Notes under the pieces: generated by a model
What the model was told of the DNA's origin: nothing
The model's input: the letters and a program-made list of their open reading frames with translations, nothing else
Databases searched by the model: none
Shown here: piece after piece, positions 1 to 15,892 of the stretch
Layout of the letters: every line of letters begins with the position of its first letter
How positions within the stretch are numbered: the stretch's first letter is position 1
Source: Gemmataceae bacterium
GTDB taxonomy: Bacteria > Planctomycetota > Planctomycetia > Gemmatales > Gemmataceae
NCBI GenBank assembly: GCA_041499985.1
Contig: JBGQLF010000001.1
Location: 1 to 33,494, forward strand
Length of the DNA stretch: 33,494 bases
Reading direction: 5' to 3'
Translations under genes and position numbers: made by a program

Positions 1-754
1 AGCGCACCATATCGTCGAAGACGTCGGTGGCGTTGGCGGAGTTCAGCGTCGGATCTTTCTGCACGAAGGTGGAATCGAAGGTATCGGTCGTCCCATCGTT
101 CTTACAGTGGCAGTTTTTTAGCGTATCGGTGTTGGTGACGCCTTTGTTGACGCGCGTCGTTCCGCCATTGCGTGGATAGCCGCCGTGACCGTCCGGGCCA
201 TCGCTGACCAGCGCATAAGCAGCGGTACTGGTTTTGACGTTGCCCGAGGCGTCCTTGATGGTGATGCTGCCGGGCACCGGCGATGAGTTCACTCCGTAAT
301 TGGCGCCAATGGCGCTGGCCGCGGTTAGTTGCTGATCGACCACGTAAAGGATGCGGTTACCCCAGCCATCGACGGCATTCTCATCGGGAAGGCTGAGCGA
401 CAAGATCGGCACCCCACCCGCCACGGTATTCCCGGAGGTGAAGTTGGCGGCGGTGCAGCCAGGGGTACAGGCAGTAGCATCCGTCCCGGTGCCCACGCCA
501 TAGGATGCGGCGCCGTAGGCGGCGGTAATGTCGCCGGGGCAGGGCAGATAGCCTTTGGCGTTGACGTAGTCTTGCAGCGCTTTTTCTATCCTATCCAGGC
601 GTGCGTTTGTAACCTGCATCTGGGTCTTTTGCAGACTGGCCACAAATATCGTCATGCCGCCGGCCGTGACGGCGGCGACTATGAGTAGCACGATAGACAT
701 TTCCAGCAGGGTGAAGCCAGCCGGAATGCGATGAGGGATGCCGTTCGGACGCAT
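1..754 (-). CDS. prepilin-type N-terminal cleavage/methylation-domain protein (type IV pilin / pseudopilin-like); C-terminus runs off the window
   Basis: Absent from the supplied ORF track because no stop lies inside the window. My reverse-strand translation from the ATG at 754..752 gives MRPNGIPHRIPAGFTLLEMSIVLLIVAAVTAGGMTIF... I checked every in-frame triplet from 2 to 754 and found no stop. An in-frame stop lies upstream at 788-790. G|FTLLE followed by a hydrophobic helix is the prepilin peptidase motif. Confidence 0.8.
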   Translation of the reverse strand, partial: MRPNGIPHRIPAGFTLLEMSIVLLIVAAVTAGGMTIFVASLQKTQMQVTNARLDRIEKALQDYVNAKGYLPCPGDITAAYGAASYGVGTGTDATACTPGCTAANFTSGNTVAGGVPILSLSLPDENAVDGWGNRILYVVDQQLTAASAIGANYGVNSSPVPGSITIKDASGNVKTSTAAYALVSDGPDGHGGYPRNGGTTRVNKGVTNTDTLKNCHCKNDGTTDTFDSTFVQKDPTLNSANATDVFDDMVR

Positions 755-858
755 AAGGCTCAGACAGGATGCAAAGTCGGTTGATTGCTATATGAGCATA
801 CATGATGACTGTTAATAACTTGTTAAGATAAGCCCTCGAACCTTCCGCCTCTCCAGCT

Positions 859-963
859 CGGAAAGCTGCCGTGCGGGACCGGGTGGCGATTTGGTTGACA
901 GATCGTTGCCGACGCCTTCCTGTTTTGCCGCTGGTGACCATGTCCCCGGAAAGCAGCTTTCCG
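859..963. repeat. CGGAAAGC half-site repeats: cggaaagctgc (859-869) inverted with gcagctttccg (953-963); 947-963 is a 17-nt palindrome, CGGAAAGC-A-GCTTTCCG
   Basis: Read directly from the sequence. It lies 4 nt downstream of the stop of the 173-aa ORF, and the interior contains TTGACA (895-900). It could be a protein-binding palindrome or a long imperfect hairpin or terminator. Confidence 0.4.
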
Positions 964-966
964 CGA

Positions 967-1488
967 TCAGCCCGGCTCGCGCGCGAACGCTGGGGCGTTC
1001 TTGCTGAGCCATTCCTTGAGATCGGCCTGCGATTCAAACTCAGCGACCTGAATACTGTCGATGGTCGGTCCCGTTTCACCGACACTCCTGATGTCTTCTT
1101 CGGTCATCTCGCGAATCCACATCACCCGATGTCTCTGAAGTCCGCCCGTGGTTAAATTGATGGTTCCTTCACTTAGCGGCATGTCGAGGTTGCTCCCTCG
1201 GATCAGAACCAGGTAAACGAGGTCCCCGGAGAATTTCAGAAGCAGACCCTCGGAAGGGTTATACTGCCAGGGGCCGAGCCAACCGTAAGGGAACCAGGTG
1301 CTGTTGCCCTCCCGGAAGCGGAACTCAACCGCACCTGCATGGTCTCTGATACCGCGCAAATACCCAAACGCCACGCACGAAGCTTCGCCTTCCTCGGCTT
1401 CCGCCTCTTTTTTCGGCGGCTGCGCGCCGTTCCCTTCCATATGCAGGATTCCCTTCAATCGCTCCCGATGGGTCGGCTTATCGGTCAT
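967..1488 (-). CDS. hypothetical protein, translationally coupled to the relaxase 3' end
   Basis: 173-aa ORF whose start at 1488 overlaps the relaxase stop at 1478 by 11 nt on the same strand. I recognise no domain. Confidence 0.6.
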   Translation of the reverse strand: MTDKPTHRERLKGILHMEGNGAQPPKKEAEAEEGEASCVAFGYLRGIRDHAGAVEFRFREGNSTWFPYGWLGPWQYNPSEGLLLKFSGDLVYLVLIRGSNLDMPLSEGTINLTTGGLQRHRVMWIREMTEEDIRSVGETGPTIDSIQVAEFESQADLKEWLSKNAPAFAREPG

Positions 1489-4174
1489 GGTCCATTTCCC
1501 TTTCCGCCGTCAGGTTTCTTGCACTACCCGGCTGGGTTAAATGGTTTCGCGCGGCAATGGCAGCCAGCTGTTGAGCGGTCGTCAGGTGCTTCATAAGCCG
1601 ATTCCGCAAGGTCGGTTTGTGTTTCGTTGCCTCAGCAAGCTCCGTCGCGGACAGCGGATCGTCCGGCCGGCTGATCGCCCTCAGCAGTTCCCTTCTGTCG
1701 TCCGTGAAAATCTGTGCCTGTTCCTTCCCCCGCGTCACTGCGACGTAGGCGGTCCGCTGGTAGGTCGCCGGGAACGATTCGCTGGACACACCGATGAAGA
1801 CCTTATCCACCGTCACGCCCTGGCTGGCGTGGCTTGTAACCACGTACCCGTGGGTCAGGTGGCCGAAATCCCTCGCGATGATCCAGCCGTGATCGACGAT
1901 GATGTCACCCCGGGCGGTGAATCCCTGGACATTCAGGAGTGAGCCGTTGCTAAGGCGATGCTTGCCGTCTTTTGTCTTACCACCTGCCGTGACGCGGACG
2001 CGGTCCCCGACGGCCAGGGCGATCTGCACCGGCCGATACGCCTCGAACCGCTTGGCAAGCTCGGTCGGTGGCTCGACCCGCTCGCCCACGATCAGGCGTG
2101 ATCCTTTCTGGTAGCCGGGCGCGTTCTGCTGAAATTGGAGCAGGTCGCCCGCCTCATATTCGGTGGCGTCCGCTTTCTGTGCGTCCGTCAGGTGAGCGGG
2201 AACCCATGCCTCAACCAGGCGTTCCTGACCAAGCTTGCCCTGCGCCTTCAGCCCGGAGCGAATCGCCTGCGTGATCCGGTCCCCTTCGGCGTGCGTCGGC
2301 GACACGACGAGCGCTGACTTGGCCAGACCGCCCCGCTTCTTTTCAGCAACGGCCGCCAGATAGGCGGTGGCCAGTTGCTTGTCGCGGTCACCACCCTCAA
2401 CCTGCTTGATCCAGCCCAGCTTGTCGAGTTCCGCGAATCCCTCCTCCGTCCTGCCTTCGCTCAGCGCCTGCGCGGCTTTCTTGTAGTCACCCTGTTGGCG
2501 AAGGATTTCGGTCACCTCCGCCACTCGCAGCCCGGCCGTGTCTTCCAATAGCTTGAGCGGCTCGCCAGCCGTGACACTCCGGTGCTGCCGGCGGTCGCCC
2601 ACGAGGATCACCCGGGCGCCGACGGATTCGGCCACATCAAACACCTGGCCCATGTCCCGTGTGCCGAGCTGGGAGGCTTCATCGACAAGGATGACGCCGC
2701 CTCTAGCCGATTCCTGCATCTCCTGGTCCTTCAGGAACCTGGCCACGGTGTCGGCATCGGCGAACCCTGCTTCCTCACGCAGCACTTCCCGGCTGGCCTT
2801 AACCGACTGGGCCAGAGCCACCACCGGCCGCCCGGCCTCGGCCAGGGCTTCGCCGATCTCCTGTTCGAGCGTCGTCTTGCCTGTTCCGGCGACACCGCGG
2901 AGTATCATCACCCGGTCGCGGGAACCGAGCACATGGCGGACCGCCGCCTTTTGTCCGTCGTTGAACCAATCGCGGGAGCATGGCCGGTCCGGGTCCCCCA
3001 GCGGCCGGAATTTCCCCCGCCCCTGGCGAGCGAAGGCGATCAGCCCGGATTCCAGAGCCAGCATCTCCTTCGTCGTTGCCATTTTGCGTCCGGCGGCATC
3101 GCTGCGGATGAGAGGGCGCGCGCTCACCTCGCGTGTTACGCCCTCCACGGTGACCGCACCAAGGCCGCGTTTCAGGGCTTCGGTGAGCAGCTTGCGTTCC
3201 GGCACCACCGCCTCGCGCACGAAGCTGTGGTCGATGGCGTGATCGACCGCCAGCCCTTCGCCGTGTTCCGGCCGGGCGAAAACACGCTCGCGACGATGAA
3301 CCGCTGCCAGCGCATCGCGCTCCTTGTCGGTCAGGCGGGCGTTCCATGACTTCCGCAAGGCTTCCCAGCCGAGCGCGGAATCTTTCTTTTCGCGAGTCTC
3401 GGCTCCGAGTTCCGCCTTTCGGTCGGGGTCGGTGATGCCCTTCTCCTCGGCCACCTTCTCAATAAGGGCCGTACGCCGCGAGAAGCGCTTGAGCACATCC
3501 GCCGGTATCCCGGCAATCTCGAAATCGTCTCGCTTCCGCTCAACCCCGAAGCCCAGGTCCTGTAAACGATTGGCCAATCGAACCCGGAATGCCGCCTGGA
3601 AGTAAGGGGCATCGCGTTTAAGTTCCCGGAACTGGCCCGCTTTCCAACGGCGTTCCTCCTCGTCCCAGGTCGTGTTGAACACGAAACAGTGAGCATGCAA
3701 CTGCGGGTCGGGGACTCCGTCCACGGGGCGGGAGGTGGTATGGATGAACTCGGCCCAGACCATGTTTCCCGTCGTGCGGTCTTCATCCTTGCCGCCCATG
3801 CGGACGCGCGTTTTCATCTCCGCTTCCATCTCGCGCATCGTTTCATCGACCGCCCCACGGAACGCATCCATGATGCCCTGGTCGCCGCTCATGGCGTAGA
3901 GCAGCGATACACTCTTGGGAACGCTGAAGGTGAAATCATAACCCACGGTCCGCTCCGAGCGCGTCCGCACCGTCAGCGGGTCTCCGGTCCTTGGGTCGAG
4001 GTTATCGCAGAGTCTTTCAAAGGAGAATTTGTCTACCGTCCCATCCAGCCCCAGCCGGGACGCGCCTTTGCCGCCCCAGCAGCCGACCAGTTCCTGTCCT
4101 TCGCTGTAGTAATCCGCCGTCGTGTAGTAAGACTTGGCGGACGTGGCACTATCCTGTTGCGTGATACGGATCAT
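1478..4174 (-). CDS. MOBF-family conjugative relaxase with C-terminal RecD-like helicase (TrwC/TraI type)
   Basis: The N-terminus MIRITQQDSATSAKSYYTTADYYSEGQE...GYDFTFSVPKSVS matches the TrwC relaxase domain. The histidine triad is HTTSRPVDGVPDPQLHAHCFVFN, Walker A is GVAGTGKTT and Walker B is ILVDEASQLG. Length 898 aa. Confidence 0.95.
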   Translation of the reverse strand: MIRITQQDSATSAKSYYTTADYYSEGQELVGCWGGKGASRLGLDGTVDKFSFERLCDNLDPRTGDPLTVRTRSERTVGYDFTFSVPKSVSLLYAMSGDQGIMDAFRGAVDETMREMEAEMKTRVRMGGKDEDRTTGNMVWAEFIHTTSRPVDGVPDPQLHAHCFVFNTTWDEEERRWKAGQFRELKRDAPYFQAAFRVRLANRLQDLGFGVERKRDDFEIAGIPADVLKRFSRRTALIEKVAEEKGITDPDRKAELGAETREKKDSALGWEALRKSWNARLTDKERDALAAVHRRERVFARPEHGEGLAVDHAIDHSFVREAVVPERKLLTEALKRGLGAVTVEGVTREVSARPLIRSDAAGRKMATTKEMLALESGLIAFARQGRGKFRPLGDPDRPCSRDWFNDGQKAAVRHVLGSRDRVMILRGVAGTGKTTLEQEIGEALAEAGRPVVALAQSVKASREVLREEAGFADADTVARFLKDQEMQESARGGVILVDEASQLGTRDMGQVFDVAESVGARVILVGDRRQHRSVTAGEPLKLLEDTAGLRVAEVTEILRQQGDYKKAAQALSEGRTEEGFAELDKLGWIKQVEGGDRDKQLATAYLAAVAEKKRGGLAKSALVVSPTHAEGDRITQAIRSGLKAQGKLGQERLVEAWVPAHLTDAQKADATEYEAGDLLQFQQNAPGYQKGSRLIVGERVEPPTELAKRFEAYRPVQIALAVGDRVRVTAGGKTKDGKHRLSNGSLLNVQGFTARGDIIVDHGWIIARDFGHLTHGYVVTSHASQGVTVDKVFIGVSSESFPATYQRTAYVAVTRGKEQAQIFTDDRRELLRAISRPDDPLSATELAEATKHKPTLRNRLMKHLTTAQQLAAIAARNHLTQPGSARNLTAEREMDHDR

Positions 4175-4451
4175 GCCTACATTTTATCATATCACAGTTT
4201 CGTTAACTAATCCTTAACTAACATCTGCTCCACCGCATCTAGCCTCGGTTTGCGAGGATTTCACATTCCTCAATGTCACCCGCGCGCCACCGCAATGTCA
4301 CACCCACACCGCTGACCGATTCTTCGTCTGTCCGTTCTTATCAGATGTTGCTTGAGTACTCTCGATGGACACCTGGGTTGCTGCTTTGTCGCCTATCCGA
4401 CGACGACTCCCATGTTTTCTTCTGTCTCTAAAACGAACGTTTATGACAAAC
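4175..4451. other. candidate oriT / divergent control region between relaxase and Fic
   Basis: 277-bp non-coding gap next to a MOBF relaxase start. Direct repeats caatgtcac occur at 4271-4279 and 4293-4301 (minus strand GGGTGACATTG and GGGTGTGACATTG), and ttaactaa occurs twice (4203-4221). An inverted 8-mer pair is aacatctg (4219-4226) and cagatgtt (4342-4349). The minus-strand run cggtgtgggtgtgac loosely recalls G/T-rich F-type nic regions. Confidence 0.35.
4181..4189 (-). promoter_or_regulatory. possible extended -10 (TGATAAAAT on the minus strand) 6 nt upstream of the relaxase ATG; implies a leaderless or near-leaderless relaxase mRNA
   Basis: Minus strand reads ...gatatGAtaaaat-gtaggc-ATG. 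No Shine-Dalgarno sequence is visible, and the -35 is weak. Confidence 0.3.
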
Positions 4452-5564
4452 TCATGGCAGGCTATACCAAGTGGCCTTTCCGGCGCCATGCTGGACAAGA
4501 TGCCGCTTCTCCACCAGGTTGCGGAAATGCTCTTTCAGCGTGTTGCGACTGGCGCCGCTTTTGCGGACCATGTCGCTCATCGTCACGCGGCCATGATCGC
4601 GGGCATAGTCCAGTATCTTCACGGCCAGCTCGGGCAGGGCGGCAAGGACCAGTTTTTCCTGCTCGACCTTGGCGGCCAGGCGCCGCTTTTGCTGTTGCAG
4701 GGCGCGAACGAAAAACCCGATCCAGGGCTGCCAGTTCGGCGCCTCGGTGCGGATCGTGCCTTGCGTCTGCCGCAAGGCGAGATAATAGCCTTCCTTGCTA
4801 TGCTCGATGACGCTCTCAAGTGAACTGTAGGGGACATAGATGTAACCTGCCTGTAATAATAGCAGGGTGGTCAGAATCCGGCTCAAGCGGCCGTTGCCGT
4901 CCTGGAAGGGGTGAATTTCCAGGAACACCACGACAAACACACCGATCACCAGCAAGGGATGCAGGCGGCCGGTGTCGCGGGTCTCATTCAGCCAGGCGAC
5001 AAGCTCGGCCATAAGGCGCGGCGTGTCGAATGGGGTTGCCGTCTCGAACACGATGCCAATCTGCCGGCCGTCGGCGTCGAAAGCGGCCACGCTGTTTGAG
5101 TTCGTCTTGTAGCTGCCGCGATGCCGTTCGTCCTTTTCGCTGTAGGCAAGAAGGTCGCGGTGCAATTGGCGGATGTGGTTTTCGGTAAGAGGGATGTCCT
5201 GCCAGGCGTTGAATACCAGGTCCATCACCTTGGCGTAGCCGGCAACCTCTTGCTCGTCGCGGGTGGCAAAGGATGTGATTTTGAGATTGGCAAGCAGGTG
5301 CTCAACCTCGCGATCTGTTAGCTTGCTGCCCTCGATGCGGGTTGACGATCCGATGCTTTCGATAGTCGCGACGCGGCGCAATGCACTCAGGCGCTCGGGT
5401 TCCAAGGTGCCAAGCGAGCGCCAGGCACCTTTGAATTCATCGATCTCGGCGATCAGCGCCAGCAACTCGGGTGTGATTTGAATGGTATCGCTTTTCAGTA
5501 TATAATGTATCCTTTCACCCGTATTATCACCCGATTCCACCCAAAAGTCCACCCGTATTATCAC
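4452..5564 (-). CDS. Fic family protein (class II, intramolecular inhibitory motif) with C-terminal winged-helix domain
   Basis: Fic motif HPFQDGNGRLSRIL, inhibitory (S/T)xxxE(G/N) motif STRIEG, N-terminal ITPELLALIAEIDEFKGAW and C-terminal wHTH-like RVTMSDMVRKSGASRNTLKEHFRNLVEK. The start is uncertain: 5564 is a GTG inside a repeat. An in-frame CTG at 5498 would give MKSDTIQITPELL, the usual N-terminal length for this family. Confidence 0.9.
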   Translation of the reverse strand: MIIRVDFWVESGDNTGERIHYILKSDTIQITPELLALIAEIDEFKGAWRSLGTLEPERLSALRRVATIESIGSSTRIEGSKLTDREVEHLLANLKITSFATRDEQEVAGYAKVMDLVFNAWQDIPLTENHIRQLHRDLLAYSEKDERHRGSYKTNSNSVAAFDADGRQIGIVFETATPFDTPRLMAELVAWLNETRDTGRLHPLLVIGVFVVVFLEIHPFQDGNGRLSRILTTLLLLQAGYIYVPYSSLESVIEHSKEGYYLALRQTQGTIRTEAPNWQPWIGFFVRALQQQKRRLAAKVEQEKLVLAALPELAVKILDYARDHGRVTMSDMVRKSGASRNTLKEHFRNLVEKRHLVQHGAGKATWYSLP

Positions 5565-5576
5565 CCGATTCCACCC
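5516..5576. repeat. two perfect 27-bp direct repeats (cacccgtattatcacccgattccaccc; 5516-5542 and 5550-5576), period 34 bp
   Basis: Read directly. On the minus strand each unit is GGGTGgaatcGGGTGataatacGGGTG. This gives six GGGTG pentamers at 10-12 bp phasing and a GATAAT box in each unit. Confidence 0.9.
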
Positions 5577-5777
5577 GAATCATGCGATGGTCAATGGCCG
5601 GATTTATTCCATCATCGCGAAAACTGGCGGTGGCCTCCGGCGTTCGGTACAAGGTAGCGCTCCTCTCAGACTTTCTTGTCACAAACTGTGGTATATTTAG
5701 CACATATTTTAGCACACACATTAACATGCACAGATAATCACTATAAGTATCAATATTATATCTGTTAGGCCATCTGC

Positions 5778-5822
5778 CTCATAACCTGAAGGCCGCAGGT
5801 TCAAATCCTGCCCCCGCAACCA
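5778..5822 (+). other. 3' half of a tRNA-Met(CAU), initiator-like (anticodon loop to CCA); no 5' half present; att core of the adjacent integrase
   Basis: ctcataacctgaaggccgcaggttcaaatcctgcccccgcaacca closely parallels E. coli tRNA-fMet as I recall it (CTCATAACCCGAAGGTCGTCGGTTCAAATCCGGCCCCCGCAACCA). The upstream 40 nt are AT-rich and cannot form the D arm, the 5' anticodon stem or the acceptor 5' strand. Confidence 0.75.
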
Positions 5823-5973
5823 ACCATTGCAAGACAAAACAATGACTTGGCCGAAAAGAACAAACCGGAAGATGACCGGAAACGGCTAACGCACTTCTAA
5901 CACATGAATTGTCATCCCGACGCCAGCATGCTATTCAGGAGCATCGTTTTCGCAAAATAGCGTGAGGTGCAGC

Positions 5974-7245
5974 ATGACTAGCCACGAATTCCTCGGTGGA
6001 AAGGTTCAACTCTACAGACGCGGTAGAAGCAGTTTTTGGCAGTGTTCAGCCTCGGTTGGCGGCAAGCAGAGACGATCCAGTACCAAGGAAACAAGCCTGG
6101 AGTTGGCCAAGCAAATTGCCGAAGACTGGTATCTCACGTTACGCGGCAAAGATCGTGCTGGCTTGCTGAAAACAGAAAAGACCTTTGAAGAGGCGGCAAA
6201 GCAGTTCCTTAAAGAATACGAGATAATCACCGAAGGCCAGCGTAGCCCTCGCTGGGTTGAGGGTCACGGCATTCGTATGCGACTGCACCTGCTGCCTTTC
6301 TTTGGTGATTGCGGCGTGTCTGAAGTGTCAGCGGGCAAGGTGCAGGAGTATCGCGTGCATCGCATCTCCACCTCACGCACCGGCAAGGCACCGGCCCGCA
6401 GCACACTTCACGACGAGATCGTCACGCTCAGGCAGATACTCAAGACCGCAATTCGTCACGGGTGGCTCACACATCTCCCTGACCTCTCACCTCCCTACAG
6501 AACTCAGGGCAAGATCGTGCATCGCCCGTGGTTCAGTCCTGCCGAGTACAAGCAACTTTATGAGGCTACTCGCGAATATGCTCGCGAGCCTTTCCACGAG
6601 CATTACAAATGGAACGCCGAGCAGGTTCATGACTACGTGCTCTTCATGGCCAATACCGGCCTCCGGCCCGATGAGGCAAAGAATCTGCAACACCGCGACG
6701 TGTTAATCGTCGTGGACGAGGCAACCGGCGAGCGCATTCTTGAGATCGAAGTGCGTGGTAAACGTGGCATCGGATTTTGCAAGAGTATGCCGGGTGCCGT
6801 GAAAACGTATCAGCGATTGCTCGCCCGACCATTGCCCGAACTGCCTCGGGGCAAACGTGCCCGCCGCCGCAGAGCCGAAATGGGCGACGTTCCTGAGTCG
6901 GGAGAAGTCAAATTCCCAAAACCCAATGACCACGTCTTTCCAGGGAATCACATCAAGCTCTTCAATGGCGTGCTCAAACGCGCCAATCTGAAAAAGGACC
7001 GTGATGGCAACCGTCGCACTGCTTACAGCCTCCGCCATACCTACATTTGTATGCGACTCATGGAAGGTGCTGACATCTACCAGATCGCTAAAAACTGCCG
7101 CACGAGCGTCGAGATGATCGAGAAGTTTTATGCAGCCCACATCAAGAACACGCTCGATGCAGCCGCCATCAATGTCCGCCGTCCCAAACCGGCATCCCGC
7201 AAGGGTAGGACACCGCAGCCAAAGAAGCCACTTGACGACGAATGA
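5974..7245 (+). CDS. int: tyrosine recombinase / integrase
   Basis: C-terminal catalytic region TGLRPDEAKNL...AYSLRHTYICMRLMEGADIYQIAKNCRTSVEMIEKFYAAH carries the R, H-x-x-R and Y residues. The track ORF opens at a GTG at 5962, and the first ATG is at 5974 (MTSHEF...). It lies 150 bp downstream of the tRNA fragment. Confidence 0.9.
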   Translation: MTSHEFLGGKVQLYRRGRSSFWQCSASVGGKQRRSSTKETSLELAKQIAEDWYLTLRGKDRAGLLKTEKTFEEAAKQFLKEYEIITEGQRSPRWVEGHGIRMRLHLLPFFGDCGVSEVSAGKVQEYRVHRISTSRTGKAPARSTLHDEIVTLRQILKTAIRHGWLTHLPDLSPPYRTQGKIVHRPWFSPAEYKQLYEATREYAREPFHEHYKWNAEQVHDYVLFMANTGLRPDEAKNLQHRDVLIVVDEATGERILEIEVRGKRGIGFCKSMPGAVKTYQRLLARPLPELPRGKRARRRRAEMGDVPESGEVKFPKPNDHVFPGNHIKLFNGVLKRANLKKDRDGNRRTAYSLRHTYICMRLMEGADIYQIAKNCRTSVEMIEKFYAAHIKNTLDAAAINVRRPKPASRKGRTPQPKKPLDDE

Positions 7246-7577
7246 GCAGATGTAAACTACGCTTTTTCCAAAGGGAGACGCAGGTCACCCACTTGCTTTA
7301 AGAGCCGTTCAGCGGCTCGCCGATCAGGGGCTTGCCCCCTCCTGTCGCGCCGAAGGGCCAATGTATGCCATCTTTTTGAGGTTCTGGGCACGTCGCCATC
7401 CGGGCGACGGATTGCTTCCAGGCTTCGCTTCGCTGCGGTCCTAAAGACGGCCATCGCCCCCTCTCGCTCTCCCGTGTGAGAACCGAGGGTGACCCGTGTT
7501 ACCTTCAGGGACGTGTGCTGCCGGTTAGGCGCGCCGCTTCCTTCCTTCCATCGAGCCAGCCCCGCCCGTGGCCTATT

Positions 7578-7775
7578 GAAACGGCACTGTGAAGCAGCCG
7601 ACGGGCCGGTCAATCACCGGCTTCCGTTGCGAAACGGCGGCAAGCTAAGGCGGCAAGCCGCCGAGCTTGCCAGTGCCGTTTCGTTCTCACCCGGCGATTG
7701 ACCGTCGCCCAAGTGCTCCCGTCTGGGCCGCTTCTGTTGCGTGCCGTAAGGCCCCGATGAGCGGGGCCGGAAACT
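7578..7775 (+). promoter_or_regulatory. structured leader module, copy 1 (upstream of the 87-aa ORF / ParB / ArdC operon)
   Basis: The 5' block gaaacggcactgtg...acgggccggtcaa and the 3' block gcgtgccgtaaggccccgatgagcggggccggaaac are shared with copies 2 and 3. Nested inverted repeats are present (7603-7620 with 7690-7710; 7631-7646 with 7664-7682). The hairpin GGCCCCG/CGGGGCC sits 8 nt before the SD (aaggagaagga), and the ATG is at 7795. Confidence 0.6.
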
Positions 7776-7794
7776 CAAGGAGAAGGAAATCATC

Positions 7795-8058
7795 ATGTCT
7801 AAACCAGCACACAAACTCCGCATCGGCGTCCTGCAAGTCACGATCTGGCGCAACAGCGGCGACAAGGGCAACTGGTACAGCGTCAATCCCACCCGCAGCT
7901 ACAAGCAGGGCGATGAAACCTGGAAGGAAACCGACAGTCTGGGCTTCGACGACCTGCTGACGATGGCCAAGCTGTTCGACCAAGCCCACACCTGGATCAT
8001 GCACCAGCAGCAGGCCGACGCCAAGGCCCGCAAGGAATCCGCGCAGGCAGCCGCCTGA
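7795..8058 (+). CDS. small conserved mobile-element protein (87 aa), possibly OB/PC4-like ssDNA-binding (weak impression only)
   Basis: Strong SD (aaggagaagga) 8 nt upstream and a GC3-biased ORF. It is the first gene after module copy 1. The sequence KLRIGVLQVTIWRNSGDKGNWYSVNPTRSYKQGDETWKETDSLGFDDL has a beta-rich pattern. Confidence 0.7.
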   Translation: MSKPAHKLRIGVLQVTIWRNSGDKGNWYSVNPTRSYKQGDETWKETDSLGFDDLLTMAKLFDQAHTWIMHQQQADAKARKESAQAAA

Positions 8059-8065
8059 GCCGGAT

Positions 8066-8103
8066 GCCGGCGGGTGGCCCTGCTGCCCGCCGGCCTCATT
8101 TTC
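8066..8103 (+). terminator. stem-loop with T-run (partial terminator or attenuator) between the 87-aa ORF and the ParB-like gene
   Basis: gccggcggg (8066-8074) pairs perfectly with cccgccggc (8086-8094) and is followed by ctcattttc. Confidence 0.4.
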
Positions 8104-8128
8104 AACCATCAATCTAAAGGAGTCTCTT

Positions 8129-10072
8129 ATGAACAATATCGACATCACCACGCAAACGCAGCTCATTGCCGTCAGCAGGCTGGAGAAATCCCCGCTCAAC
8201 GCCCGCCGCACCGTCCGACCGGACGGGATGGGCGAGCTGAAGGCTTCCCTGCTGGCACACGGCCTGATGCAGAACCTCGTCGTCACCGACGCTGGCGACG
8301 GCGCCTTTCGCGTCATCGCCGGCGGACGGCGTCTGGAGGCGATCCGCTCGCTTCAGGCCGAAGCCAAGCTGCCAGCGGATTTCGCGGTGCCATGCCAGGT
8401 CGTGACCGAAGACCACGCTCTGGAAATGAGCCTCGCCGAGAACACCGTCCGGCTGGCCATGCACCCGGCCGACCAGTTTGAAGCGTTCGCCGCCCTCATC
8501 GACAAGGGAGCGGCCGCTGCCGAGGTAGGGCAGCGCTTCGGCGTCGAGGAGGGTCTTGTCCTCAAACGGATGAAGCTGGCCCGCGTCGCGCCGCAGCTGC
8601 TCAAGGAATACCGCAGCGACGGCATCACGCTGGAATGCCTGATGGCCTTCACCGTCACGGACGACCATCGTCGTCAGCTCAAGGTCTTCAAGTCCCTGCA
8701 AGACTGGCAGAAGAACGACCCGAGCGCCATCCGCGCCGCTCTCACCGAAAAGATGATCGAGGCTGGCAGCAAGCTGGCCCGCTTCGTCGGGCTGGACGCC
8801 TATGTGGCGGCCGGCGGTGCCACCCGCGCTGACCTGTTCGGCGAGGAGGTCTATCTCGAAAAGCCGGTTCTCCTGCATCGGCTGGCCGAGGAGAAACTCG
8901 ACGGCATCCGACAGGAGCTGGAGGCCGAGGGCTGGGGCTGGATCGAGATCAACCCGGAGCGGGACTGGGAAACCATCCACCGCTGCGAGCGGATTCGGCC
9001 GCGACTGATCGGGGCGTCGGCCGAGCTGGTCGCTCTCAAATCGAAGCTGGACGCCGAGCTGGAGGAAACGGAAAGTGCCCTTGCTGACACCGAGTCCGAT
9101 TCCTTGCTGGAGCAGCAGCAGCAGGCGCTTCAGGACCGGCTAGACGAAGTGGAGCAGAAACTTGCTGCCTTCGTCGGCTTCGACGCCGAGCATAAGAAGC
9201 TGGCCGGCTGCTATGTCTCGATCGGCCAGGACGGCACGCCGTTCCTCGACAAGGGCCTGGTGAAACCCGAACACCGCAAGCAACTGGCCCGGCTACTCAA
9301 GGCAGATGGCGGGGACGGCGAACCGGCTCAGGCGAAGCCGAAAAACCCCTTCTCCGAGACCCTGCGCCGCGACCTCGCCAACTACCGCTTGCAGGTAGCC
9401 CAGGTCGAGATCGCCAAGCATCCGGCGATTGCCCTCGATCTTCTGGTCTTTAAGGTAGCGAGCGTGATGCTGGGAATGCATCGGGTCCCAGACGGGCCGG
9501 ACTTGCTTTTCAAGCGTCACGACGCGGTTCCGACGACGCAGAAGGCAGGGACTCCGGCCAGTGAGACCCTGGCAGCGATTGAGAAATCCCTTCCCGACGG
9601 TTGGCGCAAGCCGAAATCGGAAGCCGCCCGCTTCGAGGCGTTCCGCTCGCTGCCCCAGGCGGACAAGCTGGAGTTGCTGGCCTACTGCGTGGCGTTGACG
9701 CTGCAACCGAAGCTCGCTCCCGCTGACGGCGACGAGGCCACGGCCTACGATGCCGCACTGGCGTTGACCGAAGCCAGCGTGGCCGGCTACTGGCGTCCGG
9801 GCAAAGACAACTATCTCGGCCGCATCACCCGCGACCAGTTGCTTGCCCTTGCCCGCGACACCCTGGGCGAAGCGTGGGCGCAATCGCGAGCGAGCGACAA
9901 GAAAGCGTCGCTGGTCGAGCAATTGGACCGCGCCTTCGCCGATCCCGCCAAGCAGGGCCGGACGCCCGAGCAAGCGGAAAAGCTGAAAAGCTGGCTTCCC
10001 GCCCGCATGGCCTTCGGCACTGTTCCCACGCTGGAAGCCGGCAAGGCTAACAAAGCCAGGAAGGTGGCCTGA
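8129..10072 (+). CDS. ParB/Srx N-terminal-domain protein (large plasmid/ICE ParB-like nuclease-domain protein)
   Basis: N-terminus LIAVSRLEKSPLNARRT...LKASLLAHGLMQNLVV...FRVIAGGRRLEAIRSL matches the ParB N-domain GxxR box. It has a long helical C-terminal extension (647 aa). SD aaaggag lies upstream. Confidence 0.9.
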   Translation: MNNIDITTQTQLIAVSRLEKSPLNARRTVRPDGMGELKASLLAHGLMQNLVVTDAGDGAFRVIAGGRRLEAIRSLQAEAKLPADFAVPCQVVTEDHALEMSLAENTVRLAMHPADQFEAFAALIDKGAAAAEVGQRFGVEEGLVLKRMKLARVAPQLLKEYRSDGITLECLMAFTVTDDHRRQLKVFKSLQDWQKNDPSAIRAALTEKMIEAGSKLARFVGLDAYVAAGGATRADLFGEEVYLEKPVLLHRLAEEKLDGIRQELEAEGWGWIEINPERDWETIHRCERIRPRLIGASAELVALKSKLDAELEETESALADTESDSLLEQQQQALQDRLDEVEQKLAAFVGFDAEHKKLAGCYVSIGQDGTPFLDKGLVKPEHRKQLARLLKADGGDGEPAQAKPKNPFSETLRRDLANYRLQVAQVEIAKHPAIALDLLVFKVASVMLGMHRVPDGPDLLFKRHDAVPTTQKAGTPASETLAAIEKSLPDGWRKPKSEAARFEAFRSLPQADKLELLAYCVALTLQPKLAPADGDEATAYDAALALTEASVAGYWRPGKDNYLGRITRDQLLALARDTLGEAWAQSRASDKKASLVEQLDRAFADPAKQGRTPEQAEKLKSWLPARMAFGTVPTLEAGKANKARKVA

Positions 10073-10081
10073 TCAACACTC

Positions 10082-10110
10082 GGGCGGGCAGTGATGCCCG
10101 CCCATTCTTT
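10082..10110 (+). terminator. stem-loop with T-rich tail after the ParB-like gene
   Basis: gggcgggc (10082-10089), loop agtgat, gcccgccc (10096-10103), then attcttt. Confidence 0.4.
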
Positions 10111-10125
10111 GGAAAGGAATCTCCC

Positions 10126-11046
10126 ATGATGAATCGTATCGACCTCTACACCCGCGTCACCAACGCCATCATCGCCGACCTTGAAAAAGGGGTTCGCCCC
10201 TGGCTCAAGCCCTGGAACGCCGAGCACGCCGCCGGACGGATCACCCGGCCCTTGCGAGCGGGCGGCCAGCCCTACAAGGGAATCAATGTGCTGATGCTCT
10301 GGGCAGCGGCCATGACCCAGAACTTCGCCGCCCCCATCTGGATGACCTTCCAGCAGGCGAAAGAACGGAAGGCCAACGTCAGGAAAGGCTCCAGGGGATC
10401 GCTGGTCGTCTACGCCGACCGCATCACCAGGACCGAGACCGCCGCAGACGGTGAGGAGAACGAGCGCGCTATCTACTTCATGAAGGGCTACACCGTCTTC
10501 AACGTCGAGCAGATCGAGGGGCTCCCGCCCCACTTCTACGCCACCGCCGCGCCGCAACTCGATCCGCTGCACCGGATCGAGCCGGCCGACCTGTTCTTCG
10601 CCAACACCAGGGCCGACATCCGCCACGGTGGGAATCACGCTTATTACGCCCCCGAGCCTGATTACGTGCAGATGCCGCCGTTCGTGTCCTTCAGGGACGC
10701 CGAGAGTTATTTCTCGACGCTGGGACATGAAATGACCCATTGGACGAAACATCGGGCCCGGCTCGACCGGGACTTCGGTCGCAGGAAGTTCGGCGACGAA
10801 GGTTACGCCCGTGAAGAACTGGTCGCCGAGATCGGGGCCGCGTTCCTTTGCTGCGACCTCGGCATCACCCCGGAACCCCGCGACGACCACGCCGCTTACC
10901 TCGACCACTGGCTCAAAGTCCTGAAGGACGACAAGCGCGCCATCTTCCAGGCAGCCGCCCACGCCCAACGGGCCGTGGACTTCCTGCACGGGCTCCAGCC
11001 CGTTGGGGCACACATCTCAACTCACGAGCGGGGAGACCAGCCATGA
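10126..11046 (+). CDS. ardC: ArdC-like antirestriction protein (N-terminal ssDNA-binding domain + zincin metalloprotease domain)
   Basis: DLYTRVTNAIIADLEKGVRPWLKPW...YKGINVLMLW...WMTFQQAKE matches the ArdC-N/DUF1738 pattern. It carries an HEMTH metalloprotease motif (HExxH). Length 306 aa. Confidence 0.9.
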   Translation: MMNRIDLYTRVTNAIIADLEKGVRPWLKPWNAEHAAGRITRPLRAGGQPYKGINVLMLWAAAMTQNFAAPIWMTFQQAKERKANVRKGSRGSLVVYADRITRTETAADGEENERAIYFMKGYTVFNVEQIEGLPPHFYATAAPQLDPLHRIEPADLFFANTRADIRHGGNHAYYAPEPDYVQMPPFVSFRDAESYFSTLGHEMTHWTKHRARLDRDFGRRKFGDEGYAREELVAEIGAAFLCCDLGITPEPRDDHAAYLDHWLKVLKDDKRAIFQAAAHAQRAVDFLHGLQPVGAHISTHERGDQP

Positions 11047-11315
11047 CCGGCGTCTTTCGCTTTCCGCTCGGTCAGGTGGCCGTCACCGCGAACGCCAGCT
11101 TGCGGCTCACCACCGAAGAGGTTCTGACCGCCCTGCGCCGGCACGCCTCCGGCGACTGGGGCGACCTGTGCCCCGAGGACACGCTGGCAAACGACACCGC
11201 CGTGCAGCAAGGAGGCCGGCTGTTGTCGGCCTACGGGCAAGGCGCAAGCCGCTTCTGGGTCATCACCGAGGCGGACCGTTCCGTGACGACGCTGCTCTTG
11301 CCGCAGGACTACTGA
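11043..11315 (+). CDS. small conserved plasmid/ICE protein (90 aa; GDWGDL...FWVITEADRS..TLLLPQDY type)
   Basis: The ATG at 11043 overlaps the ArdC stop (ATGA). The track ORF 10848..11315 is an upstream over-extension in the same frame. Confidence 0.7.
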   Translation: MTGVFRFPLGQVAVTANASLRLTTEEVLTALRRHASGDWGDLCPEDTLANDTAVQQGGRLLSAYGQGASRFWVITEADRSVTTLLLPQDY

Positions 11316-11637
11316 CAAGCCGGCCAGTTCCGACTGCTCACCCTGCCTCACAGGCACGGTTGCGCATCGGCCCGTCAGCGCCGCCCCGTGCCACGGCCGA
11401 ACAGTGGGTGGCCGCTGGCCACCTTAGCGGAACGATGGCACGGAGTAGCCAGTCCAGTGGCCGAATCCCATCGCCAACGGCAGGGGTGATCTGGCCGTGG
11501 AACGAGCACGATCGAAGGTACTAATGGCGAGAAAAAATGGCCGGTCTGGCTGGCGGAAACATGCCCAGCCTTTAGGATAGCCCCCTGTCAATGAGGTACC
11601 TCCCCTCTTCCGTCCCGCCCCCGCACGGGGTCCTCAA

Positions 11638-11766
11638 AACGGCACTGTGGGGACGCCGCCGGGCCTGTCAAGCTTGCAGCGGGACCCTACCCCCTTCGCT
11701 TGACAGGCCCGGACTATGGCCTCCCCGCTCGCGTGCCGTAAGGCCCCGATAAGCGGGGCCGGAAAC
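11638..11766 (+). promoter_or_regulatory. structured leader module, copy 2 (upstream of the small-ORF operon)
   Basis: Same 5' block (aacggcactgtg...ccgggcctgtcaa) and 3' block (gcgtgccgtaaggccccgataagcggggccggaaac) as copy 1. It has perfect 15-bp inverted arms, ccgggcctgtcaagc (11659-11673) and gcttgacaggcccgg (11698-11712). SD gaggagga follows, and the ATG is at 11787. Confidence 0.6.
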
Positions 11767-11786
11767 CCGAAGAGGAGGACACCACG

Positions 11787-11948
11787 ATGAGACACGCACA
11801 CACCGACCAAGCCCCGACGGGCGCCGACACGCCGGCCGACGAGTTCGACGCCTGGCTTGACGCATTCGCCAGCGCCGAGGCGGACGACGCCCTGGACCGA
11901 CAGCTGTTCGCGATCCGTGAATCGCTTGCCGACTTCCGCAGCCTGTAG
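11787..11948 (+). CDS. hypothetical acidic small protein (53 aa)
   Basis: Below the ORF-track size cut-off. My translation is MRHAHTDQAPTGADTPADEFDAWLDAFASAEADDALDRQLFAIRESLADFRSL*. It sits exactly where the genes following the other module copies start. Confidence 0.5.
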   Translation: MRHAHTDQAPTGADTPADEFDAWLDAFASAEADDALDRQLFAIRESLADFRSL

Positions 11949-11962
11949 CAAGGGAGCACGCC

Positions 11963-12196
11963 ATGACAAACCAGAACTGCCTCGCCGGCGTGAAATGCCC
12001 GGAATGCGGCAACGAGAATCACTTCCTGATCGTCGCCACCATTCTTGCGGACGTGACCGATGGCGGTGCCGATATCGCTGACGGCTCAGACTTTCACTGG
12101 GATGACGCCAGCATGACTCGCTGTCCCGATTGCGACAAGGACGGCCCGCTATCCGAGTTTCACACACAATCAACCGAGAAAGGAATCGCAACATGA
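11963..12196 (+). CDS. zinc-ribbon small protein (77 aa)
   Basis: CPECG...CPDC cysteine pairs. SD aagggag lies 7 nt upstream, and the stop overlaps the next ATG (ATGA). Confidence 0.65.
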   Translation: MTNQNCLAGVKCPECGNENHFLIVATILADVTDGGADIADGSDFHWDDASMTRCPDCDKDGPLSEFHTQSTEKGIAT

Positions 12197-12597
12197 AAGT
12201 ATTCGACAACTACGAGATCAGCCCCTGCAAACGGTACGAGGAACCCGACTCACCCGGAAAGTTCTACTTCGAGGTCTGCGCGGCGGCCGAGGCCGATGTT
12301 TGGACGCTCTACGGCCACATCAACGGCGAGGGCGTTCAGGCGATCGGTGACTTCTCCACCCGCGAGCACGCCAAGGAGGTGTACTCCTGCATTACTGGGC
12401 AGGCGTTCCCGGATTCTTATCTGTCAGCCGACTGGCTCAGGGTCATTCACACGGGGCCGAAATTGCTGGAGGCCCTCAAGGAATTAGTGGTGCATCTCGA
12501 TGAGGATTGCCCCGCGTCTTCCCGGTGCCGGCACCTTACAGAAGCAATCGAGAGTGCTCACGCTATCGTTGCCGAAGCGACCCGGAGGGCAGCATGA
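12193..12597 (+). CDS. hypothetical protein (134 aa), shares a C-terminal module with the next ORF
   Basis: ATG at 12193 preceded by gagaaagga. The track ORF from 12130 is an over-extension. The protein ends ...AIVAEATRRAA. Confidence 0.7.
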   Translation: MKVFDNYEISPCKRYEEPDSPGKFYFEVCAAAEADVWTLYGHINGEGVQAIGDFSTREHAKEVYSCITGQAFPDSYLSADWLRVIHTGPKLLEALKELVVHLDEDCPASSRCRHLTEAIESAHAIVAEATRRAA

Positions 12598-12935
12598 ACA
12601 CCACGAAGCATTCCCCAGCACCTTGGAGCTACGAGTACAGCCCGTACACCGTCCGTAATCCCGGAACCCACGGCACCAAGCAACCGGGGAACGACATCCC
12701 CGCCTATGAAATCTTCGATGCCGATGGCAACAAGGTCTTCGATACCAACGAGGACACCGCGGACGAACTTCAGGAAGCAAACGCTCGCATGGGAGCAGCT
12801 GCCCCAACGCTGCTGGTATCTCTCGTCACGTATGCGAACCTGCTCGCCGACTACGACGAATCGGACGGCCCCGAAGGCGAAGCCTACCGTGAGGCCCTGG
12901 CTGCAATCGCCGAAGCGACCGGGAGGGCAGCATGA
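12594..12935 (+). CDS. hypothetical protein (113 aa), paralogous C-terminal module
   Basis: The ATG at 12594 overlaps the preceding stop (ATGA) and is preceded by GGAGGG. The protein starts MNTTKHSPAPWSYE and ends ...AAIAEATGRAA. Confidence 0.7.
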   Translation: MNTTKHSPAPWSYEYSPYTVRNPGTHGTKQPGNDIPAYEIFDADGNKVFDTNEDTADELQEANARMGAAAPTLLVSLVTYANLLADYDESDGPEGEAYREALAAIAEATGRAA

Positions 12936-13087
12936 CGAATGATCCAATGAAACCGGGCCGCCTTCAGGAACGCCTCGGCCCGACGCCAGAGAGCGCTTCC
13001 TGTTATTGGCTTGCCGCTCCCATACCGGGGGTGGATCCCCCGCTCCATCAAGGATACCCTCCGGCGTCCGAAGCGACCCCTCCCTAG
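12932..13087 (+). CDS. possible third coupled small ORF (51 aa), maybe a decayed paralog
   Basis: The same GGAGGGCAGCATGA junction occurs at 12922-12935. My translation is MTNDPMKPGRLQERLGPTPESASCYWLAAPIPGVDPPLHQGYPPASEATPP*. It again ends in ..EAT.. and the DNA carries ccgaagcgaccc a third time. Confidence 0.3.
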   Translation: MTNDPMKPGRLQERLGPTPESASCYWLAAPIPGVDPPLHQGYPPASEATPP

Positions 13088-13874
13088 CTTCCGCGCGCCC
13101 AAAGCCTCGCTTGTGCAGCCAGTGAGACCCTCCCCGCCGTCCGTCCTTGACTCCGCTCCCCCCTTGCATTTTTCCCTCTGTTCCGGTTGATCGCGTTCGA
13201 TCAAACCAGACATGAATCACTCCAAGCTCCCGAGGCGCAAGCTTCATCCTGATTCCAATCTCGCGCCCCCGCGAGCGATATCCACATCACTGTTCCGAGC
13301 GTCGGCTGAAACCGGCGCTCGGCTGCCATATACCCTTGACTTCTTCAGCCCTCCCGAAGGGCGCTCCCCCTCACGCATTGATGCGGTTTTGCCGCAATGA
13401 ACCATGCATGTTTTTTGCAAGCTTGCTAATCATTTTTTGCACAGGCGTCTTCCCTATGCTCTGCATAGGCCGACTGGAACGGTTCCAGCCGCCTGAATTG
13501 CCACCGAAAGCACCCGATGCCATGAAGGCTTGCACGAGGCGCCGCCTTCTCGGATTTCCGTCCTGCCCAAGCTCTTATGAATGAAATCAAGAAGTTTGTG
13601 CAATACTTGTCAGAGCAGTGGTCGAGCCCTGCTGCTACGGAAGGCAGATGGGCCGCACCCAGAGCCGGGGGCAGAGTTTGAGACGACGGCCAATCACACT
13701 CTTATACGTGGGTTGGATACCACAGGACCGTTTTTCGTCTTGACCTTCCTGAGCCTGCGGTCGTGCGTCGGCACCGTTGCGTGTATTCAACGGGCCGGCC
13801 AAAAGCTTGGGACCAGGGTTGCCAACTATTCTCTGCCACCGGCGCTGACTGCGGGGCTTTGTCGGCGAATCCAG

Positions 13875-15002
13875 CTACGAAGCTTGAGCCACCGTCGTCG
13901 GAAGTGAAACTGTCCGCGCGATTGCCCAAATAAAGGTGGCCATCTCACGGGCAATGGCAGTAACGGTTATATTCTTGTTCTTGCCACGCGCACACATGGA
14001 CCGGTAACGGTGGCAAAGCCTAACCTGTGCCTTCCAGGCGATGTCCAGCACTTCTTTTGTCAGGCCGCTGTGCCGTTGTGTCAAAACGCTGCTGACCCGA
14101 GCAGGCATCCGGTACGCCCAAGCGCCTTCAATTAGGACCCGTCGCGCGTGCTTACTGCCCGCCTTGGTGATGGGTCCCCGGATGACGCGGCTTCCGGATG
14201 AATGCTCAGACGGTGAGAGCCCCAGGTAACTGACCAGTTGCCGAGGGTGGATGAAACGGCTGAAGTCGCCGATCTCGGACACCAGGATCACGGCGGCGAT
14301 CTCGGACACGCCACGCATTGCCTGGATCGCCTGCACCACCGGCGCCAGCGTCCAGCCGGGCAGCAGCTTCATGATCTGTTGCTCCAACCGGGAAAGCCGG
14401 TCTTGGCTGTCGCGGATGGCCGCCAGGTTTTCCTCGATTAGAATGTAATGCGCCGGATGGTCGAACTTCAGCTCACGAATCCAGTTGATGTGGGCCTTGG
14501 TCCAGTGGGTCTTACCCTGGTAAATGCGGCCGTGCCGAAGCAGGAAGCCTTGAAGGTGCTGGCGGTATTTCTTCACCATGTCCATCGCCGTAGTGCGGGC
14601 CCGGATCAGGTCACGCATGGCCTCATGGGCCTCGTCGGGCACCCAGATTGTGGTCAGGTCTCCGGCGCGGTGCAGCCGGGCCAGCTCCAGCGCGTCGCGA
14701 CGATCGTTTTTGACGCGAACGCCCTTCTTGGTGGGAGTATGGGACGGGGCGATGACGATACACTCGTGACCCAACCCCGCAATCTGGCGCTGAAGGCCAT
14801 ACCCGCATGGGCCCGCCTCGTAGCAGAAAAATAGCTTGCCGTACTTGCCGGCCAGCTTCTTGAGGAGCTTCAGGACCGCCGCTGGCTCGTTGGCGATTTG
14901 TCCGTAGTAGCGAATCTCGCCGTCTCGGCCGTCCTCGGCGATGGCAACGGCGATGGTCTCTTTGTGCGTGTCAAGTCCGATAAATGCTGTATTATTGGTC
15001 AT
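13875..15002 (-). CDS. IS110 family transposase
   Basis: N-terminus MTNNTAFIGLDTHKETIAVAI matches the DEDD/RuvC-like domain. The C-terminal Transposase_20 pattern is LLPGWTLAPVVQAIQAMRGVSEIAAVILVSEIGDFSRFIHPRQLVSYLGLSPSEHSSGSRVIRGPITKAGSKHARRVL. Confidence 0.95.
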   Translation of the reverse strand: MTNNTAFIGLDTHKETIAVAIAEDGRDGEIRYYGQIANEPAAVLKLLKKLAGKYGKLFFCYEAGPCGYGLQRQIAGLGHECIVIAPSHTPTKKGVRVKNDRRDALELARLHRAGDLTTIWVPDEAHEAMRDLIRARTTAMDMVKKYRQHLQGFLLRHGRIYQGKTHWTKAHINWIRELKFDHPAHYILIEENLAAIRDSQDRLSRLEQQIMKLLPGWTLAPVVQAIQAMRGVSEIAAVILVSEIGDFSRFIHPRQLVSYLGLSPSEHSSGSRVIRGPITKAGSKHARRVLIEGAWAYRMPARVSSVLTQRHSGLTKEVLDIAWKAQVRLCHRYRSMCARGKNKNITVTAIAREMATFIWAIARTVSLPTTVAQAS

Positions 15003-15012
15003 GGCTTACCTC

Positions 15013-15868: not shown

Positions 15869-15892
15869 GCAGCAGCCCGTTACATTTGTCCC

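Follow-up and report, generated by a model that had tools for sequence, protein, structure and literature searches.

Tyrosine integrases that insert mobile elements into tRNA genes are reportedly divided into classes according to the sublocation within the tRNA gene at which they act, one of these classes being defined by crossover at the anticodon loop. The tripartite integrative and conjugative elements (ICEs) of Mesorhizobium carry three integrases, IntS, IntG and IntM, the last of which acts at a tRNA-Met gene (PMC8627217). Integration modules are often switched among Mesorhizobium ICEs and MOBF integrative mobilizable elements (IMEs), and MOBF IMEs also occur at tRNA-Met (PMC8627217). Accretion at a single attachment (att) site yields tandem arrays of ICEs, IMEs and cis-mobilizable elements (review, PMC5704250). 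Our literature search returned general ICE and IME background of this kind only; it found no characterised member of the integrase family described here and no case of integration at an initiator tRNA gene (tRNA-fMet) terminal to an rRNA operon (rrn). The sequence analysed, referred to as the window, is the entire 33,494-bp contig JBGQLF010000001.1. It carries the 3' half of a tRNA-fMet gene immediately upstream of an integrase gene (int), with genes of a mobile element on both flanks. Comparison with related loci makes it probable that this is an unused, lambda-style tRNA-fMet attP-int module on an IME that was integrated into a chromosome by another route.

The core of the putative attP lies at 5778-5822 on the plus strand (CTCATAACCTGAAGGCCGCAGGTTCAAATCCTGCCCCCGCAACCA) and corresponds to tRNA-fMet from the anticodon loop to the terminal CCA. 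Alignment with E. coli tRNA-fMet spans the anticodon loop, the T arm and CCA, and the segment is identical at 45 of 45 positions to the tRNA-fMet of several Alphaproteobacteria (loci L037, L040, L041 and L060). The CCTGA strand of its anticodon stem is the form found in every alphaproteobacterial tRNA-fMet among the loci examined. In a megablast search of plasmids it was the sole part of the query matched, with 96-100% identity to plasmid and chromid tRNA genes of Azospirillum, Rhizobium, Ensifer, Paracoccus and Rhodobacter. ARAGORN called no tRNA anywhere in the window, and Rfam at its gathering threshold gave no tRNA match. A permissive Rfam scan produced a sub-threshold tRNA (19.9 bits against a cut-off of 29) in which the D arm was collapsed and the anticodon stem mispaired, and the 14 bases 5' of CTCATAA match the tRNA at only 8 positions. 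A second copy of the 45-nt half was not found in the window at up to 8 mismatches of 45, nor were any k-mers of at least 12 bases shared. The first-pass annotation, made from the sequence alone, had read 5778-5822 as the 3' half of an initiator tRNA running from anticodon loop to CCA, with no complete tRNA at the site, and both points are upheld by these results. No planctomycete tRNA-fMet was present within any retrieved locus. In a Rhizobium sp. SRDI969 plasmid (pSRDI969_1, record positions 130935-131010; L001 5986-6061), an alphaproteobacterial tRNA-fMet-like gene has the anticodon CAG and was labelled tRNA-Leu by ARAGORN.

The junction between the relaxase/Fic side of the element, the att site and int is real, because it recurs in an independent assembly: JGI contig Ga0534153_0018767 (6289 bp) matches window positions 1335-7623, which include relaxase, Fic, att and int, at 100% identity. 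An assembly chimera is ruled out by this second assembly and by the many relatives. The 6.3-kb contig is also the only other record of the exact relaxase and int proteins; an exact-protein look-up returned no record for the helicase, DUF2090 and orf967 proteins of the window.

The sequences on either side of the tRNA half have the organization of the arms of a lambda-style attP. In the P arm, the direct repeats TTTAGCACA are present at 5696-5704 and 5708-5716, and within them two direct TAGCACA motifs are predicted as arm-type sites (5698-5704 and 5710-5716, plus strand, 12 nt apart). The TAGCACA pair stands exactly at -80 from CTCATAA in the window, L085, L086, L169, L079, both copies in L004, L009 and L072, and at -81 in L006; more distant sites that retain only the tRNA half carry the variants TGGCACA, TAACACA and TTACACG. 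In the P' arm, TAACGCA (5887-5893) and TAACACA (5898-5904) are predicted as direct arm-type sites on the plus strand, 11 nt apart. In about 60 loci of both the attL and the attP type, a pair or triplet of TAGCACA, TAACACA or TTACACA occurs in the P' arm, some 55-85 nt after CCA. The first-pass annotation had proposed the tttagcaca repeats as arm-type sites, and their fixed position at -80 in related attP sites, together with the similar pair in the P' arm, speaks for that proposal. The whole window contains nine matches to TARCRCA, four of which fall within 5698-5904, all four on the plus strand. Int is presumed to bind the TAGCACA-type repeats. Sites resembling the consensus for integration host factor (IHF) flank the tRNA half on each side, each with one mismatch to WATCAANNNNTTR and both on the plus strand: TATCAATATTATA at 5748-5760 in the P arm and AAACAATGACTTG at 5837-5849 in the P' arm. 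By themselves these matches are not significant. At the P-arm position an ATCAAT motif occurs in most attP-type relatives, with a perfect consensus in L169 and L079, and at the P'-arm position a ATCAATGACTTAG-type motif occurs in many loci. In all sites aligned, tRNA identity starts at CTCATAA or a few bases before it, and thus the crossover is placed at the anticodon loop.

The integrase gene occupies 5974-7245 on the plus strand and encodes a protein of 423 aa. Its ATG at 5974 lies 151 nt after CCA, close behind the tRNA half as previously noted; the mechanical open reading frame starts at a GTG at 5962. We treat Int as a divergent lambda-type tyrosine recombinase, an assignment for which sequence statistics alone are insufficient and which draws on motifs, context and weak fold matches. 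The motifs GLR231PDEA, K263, LR354H355TY and KFY386 are invariant across the integrase family, and in an hhalign comparison with a Pfam-verified integrase the Int motifs fall opposite its Arg, Arg-His and Tyr motifs, a weak match (E=0.075). The His that usually precedes the catalytic Tyr is apparently missing in Int, where CRTSV is aligned to ARHSD. The family is very large: 7252 homologues were found at E<1e-5, and a Pfam domain is on record for none of 120 among the matches listed. Taken together, the segment at 5690-5910 and int would form a complete, functional-looking, lambda-style integration module of a heterobivalent tyrosine integrase, and we infer that the module is active.

The site upstream of int was classified in 80 loci out of 399 relatives in a genome scan. 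A complete tRNA-fMet is present 93-218 nt upstream of int in 40 loci, all from (Alpha)proteobacteria. In six further loci, also from (Alpha)proteobacteria, the contig stops within a matching 5' half, consistent with a complete tRNA-fMet. Only the tRNA 3' half is present in 14 loci (8 non-alphaproteobacterial, 5 alphaproteobacterial and 1 unlabelled). The remaining 20, from mixed hosts, show no fragment within 450 nt or are cut, and some of them lie beside tRNA-Leu. Outside the Alphaproteobacteria, all 8 of the 8 fragment-bearing loci have the half only: five in Planctomycetes (L004, L009, L052, L072 and L079), two in Verrucomicrobia (L006 and L033) and one in Armatimonadota (L036). These half-only sites include the closed 5.5-Mb chromosome of Planctomicrobium SH527 (L072) and a 4.8-Mb contig of Aeoliella (L009). 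The closer metagenomic relatives L085, L086 and L169, with int identities of 83-91%, are also half-only, and the closest int homologues in genomes are in planctomycete metagenome-assembled genomes. The first-pass annotation had predicted that recombination would regenerate the tRNA next to int, which is the arrangement seen in the 40 complete and 6 contig-truncated loci. It had also called the window site an unrecombined attP of a tRNA-fMet-specific integrase with an anticodon-loop crossover, a description that fits a tRNA half with no 5' part and with element genes on each flank.

In many of the loci with a complete tRNA, tRNA-Ile and tRNA-Ala lie about 3.5 kb further upstream in the order Ile-Ala-(23S-5S)-fMet, and therefore the target is the tRNA-fMet that ends an rRNA operon. 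This position also explains why many contigs break at the site. Under the proposed mechanism, the natural target would be the alphaproteobacterial initiator tRNA gene, which typically closes the rRNA operon. Through strand exchange at the anticodon loop, the 3' half carried by the element would become joined to the host 5' half, and integration would leave tRNA-int at one element end and the P arm with the displaced tRNA half at the other. In the alphaproteobacterial locus L005, whose int is 79% identical, the order is rrn, tRNA-fMet, int, ParB, ArdC, which is the integrated circular permutation of the window gene order. Distant int branches, with 58-63% identity (L173 on Rhizobium pMK-3, L070, L076 and L077), adjoin other tRNAs, which shows that the target has switched within the integrase family; among these tRNAs are tRNA-Leu(caa) and, in L173 some 100 nt before int, a 3' fragment that ends in ...CTCTCACCA.

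In the window, the module would sit unused inside an element with the order TrwC relaxase, oriT, Fic, attP-int and leading region (ParB_N, ArdC and methylase/helicase). The relaxase module (980-4324) and the att-int module (5681-7476) are both homologous to relatives, in which they are contiguous in one of two arrangements. The order TrwC-oriT-attP-int-leading region is shared by the window, L085 and L072, and the order attP-int-TrwC-oriT-leading region is found in L004, L079, L086 and L169. Both flanks of attP thus evidently belong to one element backbone. A T4 coupling protein (T4CP) gene lies upstream of the shared backbone in L079, L072, L009 and L169, and relatives have a ParB-like gene there as well; the corresponding stretch of the present element is beyond this contig. 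No mating-pair-formation genes were seen in the window or in the relatives examined, and for this reason the element looks mobilizable rather than self-transmissible.

On the left flank, a conserved 173-aa open reading frame (967-1488, minus strand) precedes a MOBF relaxase (1478-4174, minus) with a TrwC relaxase domain (Pfam E=3e-72) and a helicase domain (AAA_30, E=1e-47). The DNA of the relaxase module is 74-88% identical to that of L085, L086, L079 and L004. Homology with all four of these close relatives begins abruptly at 980-985; window positions 1-980 have no homology to any relative, and their open reading frames gave no family matches. At the other end, homology with four relatives continues beyond the TrwC start for 130-150 bp and breaks off at 4301-4324. 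The region upstream of the relaxase gene (4175-4451), with short tandem repeats at 4200-4310, is a candidate origin of transfer (oriT). Between it and attP lies a Fic-domain gene (4452-5564, minus; Pfam E=8e-17), a cargo insertion. Fic is missing in L085, where the gap from oriT to attP is 213 bp compared with 1357 bp in the window, and L168 has a Fic copy of at least 90% identity whose surroundings are unrelated. A Fic gene and a relaxase had been predicted on the flank opposite int, and Pfam identifies both there. A 30-nt tandem direct repeat, CACCCGTATTATCACCCGATTCCACCC..., is present at 5516-5579 with 97% identity and 34-nt spacing, at or just upstream of the Fic start, and may be an operator. 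A homologue, P0157, has 21 residues fewer, and translation of Fic therefore probably begins downstream of these repeats.

On the right flank, leading-region and cargo genes of the same element extend from 7246 to 22201 on the plus strand, as judged from Pfam and from synteny with L085, L079 and L169. Among them, Pfam identifies a ParB_N protein (8129-10072, plus), ArdC (10126-11046, plus) and a methylase/SNF2 helicase of 1960 aa (16209-22091, plus). An IS110 transposase gene (13875-15002, minus; Pfam) lies within the leading region.

The right part of the contig (22192-33494, minus strand) has the content of a host chromosome, with Pfam matches for a cupin, two AlkA-like proteins, DUF488, phosphoketolase, acetate kinase, a FAD flavoprotein, DUF2090 and PGI. 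The genes from AlkA through PGI are 91-96% identical in contigs of related organisms (L088, L089, L170 and L171), and one of these contigs, of 197 kb, also carries transaldolase and G6PD. In L087 and L088, AlkA adjoins a P-type ATPase gene and the locus is element-free, and in more distant relatives an intact cupin gene lies next to AlkA. The cupin gene of the window is 3'-truncated: its native C-terminus is lost at about 22201-22203, and homology to the native cupin resumes at about 22203. The right end of the element is placed near 22201, inside the 3' end of the cupin gene. Neither a tRNA-fMet half nor arm repeats were found at this junction, and since the right flank is chromosomal, the element appears to be chromosomally integrated, and not through its fMet attP. 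The T-loop-like motif GCTTCAAATCC at the junction (22189-22199) was considered as a secondary att site and rejected: it has no P-arm repeats upstream and no T-arm fold, and 1.3 matches of its type are expected by chance. The last element bases, CAGCTTCAAATCCTA (junction 22189-22203), are also T-loop-like and match the fMet half at 13 of 16 positions, within chance expectation. At 22910-25170 the AlkA-like glycosylase gene is present in two tandem copies with 66% identity between them; the close relatives L087 and L088 have only one. The few named homologues make a planctomycete host likely, those of acetate kinase being from Isosphaeraceae (77%) and Planctomycetaceae (69%).

This flank bears on the topology of the locus, for which the first-pass annotation had left three explanations: a plasmid or circular form, a tandem array, or capture by another route. 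The chromosomal flank without an fMet repeat favours the third, and the other two find no support. A plasmid or excised circle, on which attP would naturally be intact and the metabolic genes would be cargo, would account for the presence of both arms and for the plasmid-like character of the relaxase and leading-region genes. The best plasmid relatives of the relaxase, which are its nearest database relatives, are indeed planctomycete, from Paludisphaera, Singulisphaera and another planctomycete, and Asticcacaulis plasmids carry int with a half tRNA. However, Pfam and NCBIfam scans found no replication or partition module (Rep, ParA) in the window, and the contig ends have no terminal overlap. 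The right 11 kb consists of central metabolism that is 91-96% identical to long chromosomal contigs, and the cupin gene broken by the element is whole in relatives. Moreover, related elements with an intact attP reside inside a closed 5.5-Mb chromosome and Mb-scale contigs, and the plasmids with int in PLSDB are all alphaproteobacterial. A free circular form is therefore very unlikely. The two Asticcacaulis plasmids (L084, pASEM-1, 291 kb; L172, pASDW145_1, 345 kb) carry int adjoining a half-only tRNA-fMet and have no P-arm TAGCACA repeats. They may be decayed or rearranged junctions rather than attP, and with the P-arm repeats missing they were set aside as clean examples of a plasmid-borne attP.

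A tandem array would make the window site the middle junction of two elements serially integrated at tRNA-fMet, the relaxase/Fic side being the end of the first element and int with the leading region the start of the second. Accretion at the att site does occur in this family. In L004, two copies of the P arm with the tRNA-fMet half (4353-4493 and 9786-9867) lie 5.3 kb apart with ABC-transporter genes between them, an arrangement suggesting that the att site has captured a segment that has no int. Two tRNA-Met genes lie near int in L039, L040 and L047, and the half site of L050 is preceded by a complete tRNA at a distance of 3 kb. The left end of the window element is also out of view. Such an array nevertheless requires a bounding tRNA-fMet 3' repeat, and neither the junction at about 22201 nor the whole contig contains a second copy. 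The flanks instead form a coherent relaxase-oriT-leading-region unit, contiguous in L085, L072, L169 and L079, and the backbone edge about 10 kb upstream in relatives is marked by another tRNA and another recombinase, not by tRNA-fMet. An array is possible only if it lies wholly to the left of the contig, and we regard it as quite unlikely.

The route by which an element with an intact attP would enter a non-alphaproteobacterial chromosome is suggested by these backbone edges; in the window that different junction has its right end near 22201 in the cupin gene. On the 1.1-Mb contig L169 (int 83% identical), tRNA-Leu(taa), a PF00589 integrase and two HTH_17 (excisionase-type) genes occupy the far edge of the backbone, followed in order by T4CP, ParB, attP(fMet), int, TrwC, ArdC and helicase. 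A tRNA-Pro and a large serine recombinase gene, then T4CP, are found in L009, and a PF00589 integrase lies upstream of T4CP in L086. The window itself contains one integrase plus the IS110 transposase. Its chromosomal entry was most likely the work of a second recombinase encoded at the element's left end, which we place there by analogy with these relatives because the equivalent region falls beyond the left end of the contig. In canonical initiator tRNAs the anticodon stem contains three G-C pairs, one of which would be broken in a hybrid of the host 5' half with the alpha-type CCTGA strand. Integration at the tRNA-fMet of such a host could thus be inefficient or harmful.

Several observations weigh against this account of an fMet module left unused in a planctomycete chromosome. 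Pfam and NCBIfam at E<=0.01 returned no matches for Int, and under a relaxed E-value limit Pfam Phage_integrase matched it below threshold (E=0.043). No relatives were found in the Protein Data Bank (PDB) in sequence searches with Int alone or with a 25-sequence family profile. An AlphaFold2 model of Int was poor, with a predicted local distance difference test (pLDDT) score of 57; its input was a shallow alignment in which all rows are at least 73% identical, and fold matches to it are only suggestive. The best of these in Foldseek were lambda Int, the integron integrase IntI and Cre (E=2e-4 to 9e-4, template modelling score about 0.2), with further matches to isolated integrase core-binding domains. 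Because of the failed Pfam and NCBIfam thresholds, the lack of a PDB relative and the low pLDDT, the assignment to tyrosine recombinases rests on the motifs, the context and these weak fold matches. The contig does not reach the left end of the element, and no second recombinase, left junction or host tRNA-fMet is seen for the element itself. In L089 (11355-12868) the same adjacency of helicase and AlkA is present with the cupin gene deleted, and the helicase is only 83% identical compared with 91-96% for the chromosomal genes. Either the insertion is old and the helicase fast-evolving, or the first element was replaced by a related one at the same locus. The element may thus be old and vertically inherited, with an attP no longer in use. 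Finally, the host phylum is judged from a few named homologues, and one match of 92% carries the odd label "Arthrobacter bacterium".

The possibility of disuse leads to a further alternative, in which attP-int is a remnant that has lost its function, handed down from the element's alphaproteobacterial ancestor and idle in the present lineage. It would agree with the exclusively unrecombined form of the site in non-alphaproteobacterial hosts, with the long residence at one chromosomal locus suggested by L089, with the splitting of int in L079 and with the landing of IS110 in the leading region. The sequences themselves do not look abandoned, however. The int gene is full length in the window, L004, L009, L072, L085, L086 and L169, and the ratio of nonsynonymous to synonymous substitution rates (dN/dS) against six relatives is 0.055-0.095, with synonymous divergence (dS) from 0.46 to saturated. 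Over the same divergence the 45-nt tRNA half is unchanged, being 100% identical in nine comparisons of related sites, against 56-78% for the flanking arms, and the positions of the arm repeats are exactly preserved. Constraint on int, the unchanged half and the fixed arm repeats therefore argue for continuing selection, implying continued use somewhere. If this DNA regularly joins an expressed initiator tRNA, the T arm and the acceptor strand would be expected to stay conserved over their whole length, as they are here. We consider an idle leftover unlikely, and an intact module that is unused in its present host remains the explanation we think probable.

Where the module would be in use is a more speculative matter. 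It is conceivable, though on balance doubtful, that these elements shuttle between phyla with two alternative integration modules as a host-range bet-hedge, the fMet module being tuned to Alphaproteobacteria. If so, the fMet module would stay intact under strong purifying selection while the element resides in Planctomycetes, Verrucomicrobia or Armatimonadota by means of a different recombinase, and the perfectly conserved alpha-type half-tRNA would document, in readable form, repeated conjugative transfer between phyla in soil. These elements would then make conjugation between distant soil phyla tractable to study, and the module would be a candidate site-specific integration tool for Alphaproteobacteria. 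If not, the locus is an ordinary attP/int module carried by a composite mobile element. Systems of this kind are already known; what is new is this member and the clean split by phylum between used and unused sites, which we consider moderately interesting. The anatomy of the site (the core, the repeats of either arm and probable IHF sites) is hereby defined for a very large and apparently uncharacterised integrase family, and the state of att across genomes, recombined or intact, can be used to infer where an element is at home.

In comparison with tRNA-targeting integrases and lambda Int, the window resembles described systems in that attP contains the part of the tRNA between the crossover and the 3' end and lies next to int. 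As in lambda attP, each arm bears arm-type direct repeats, separated from the core by an IHF-like site, and as with tRNA-targeting integrases, integration regenerates an intact tRNA, here in 46 relatives (6 of them contig-truncated). Lambda Int is also among the best, if weak, fold matches of the Int model. The system differs from other tRNA-targeting integrases in its target, an initiator tRNA at the end of an rRNA operon, and from lambda-type integrases in the divergence of Int, which is too great for Pfam Phage_integrase (E=0.043), and in the apparent lack of the His before the catalytic Tyr. Accretion has its likeness in the duplicated att and int-less 5.3-kb segment of L004 and in the tandem tRNA/att copies of several alphaproteobacterial loci, but it fails to explain the window locus because there is a single att copy and no bounding repeat. 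Unlike the tripartite ICEs, this element shows no sign of split chromosomal pieces or sequential recombinations, and the second recombinase varies among relatives (tyrosine or large serine), with none in the window; unlike the Mesorhizobium ICEs, the hosts of the unused module belong to other phyla. With multi-integrase ICEs it may share the carriage of more than one integrase/att pair per element, seen here in the relatives L169, L009 and L086, and through such carriage one att may stay unrecombined while the other integrase holds the element in the chromosome.

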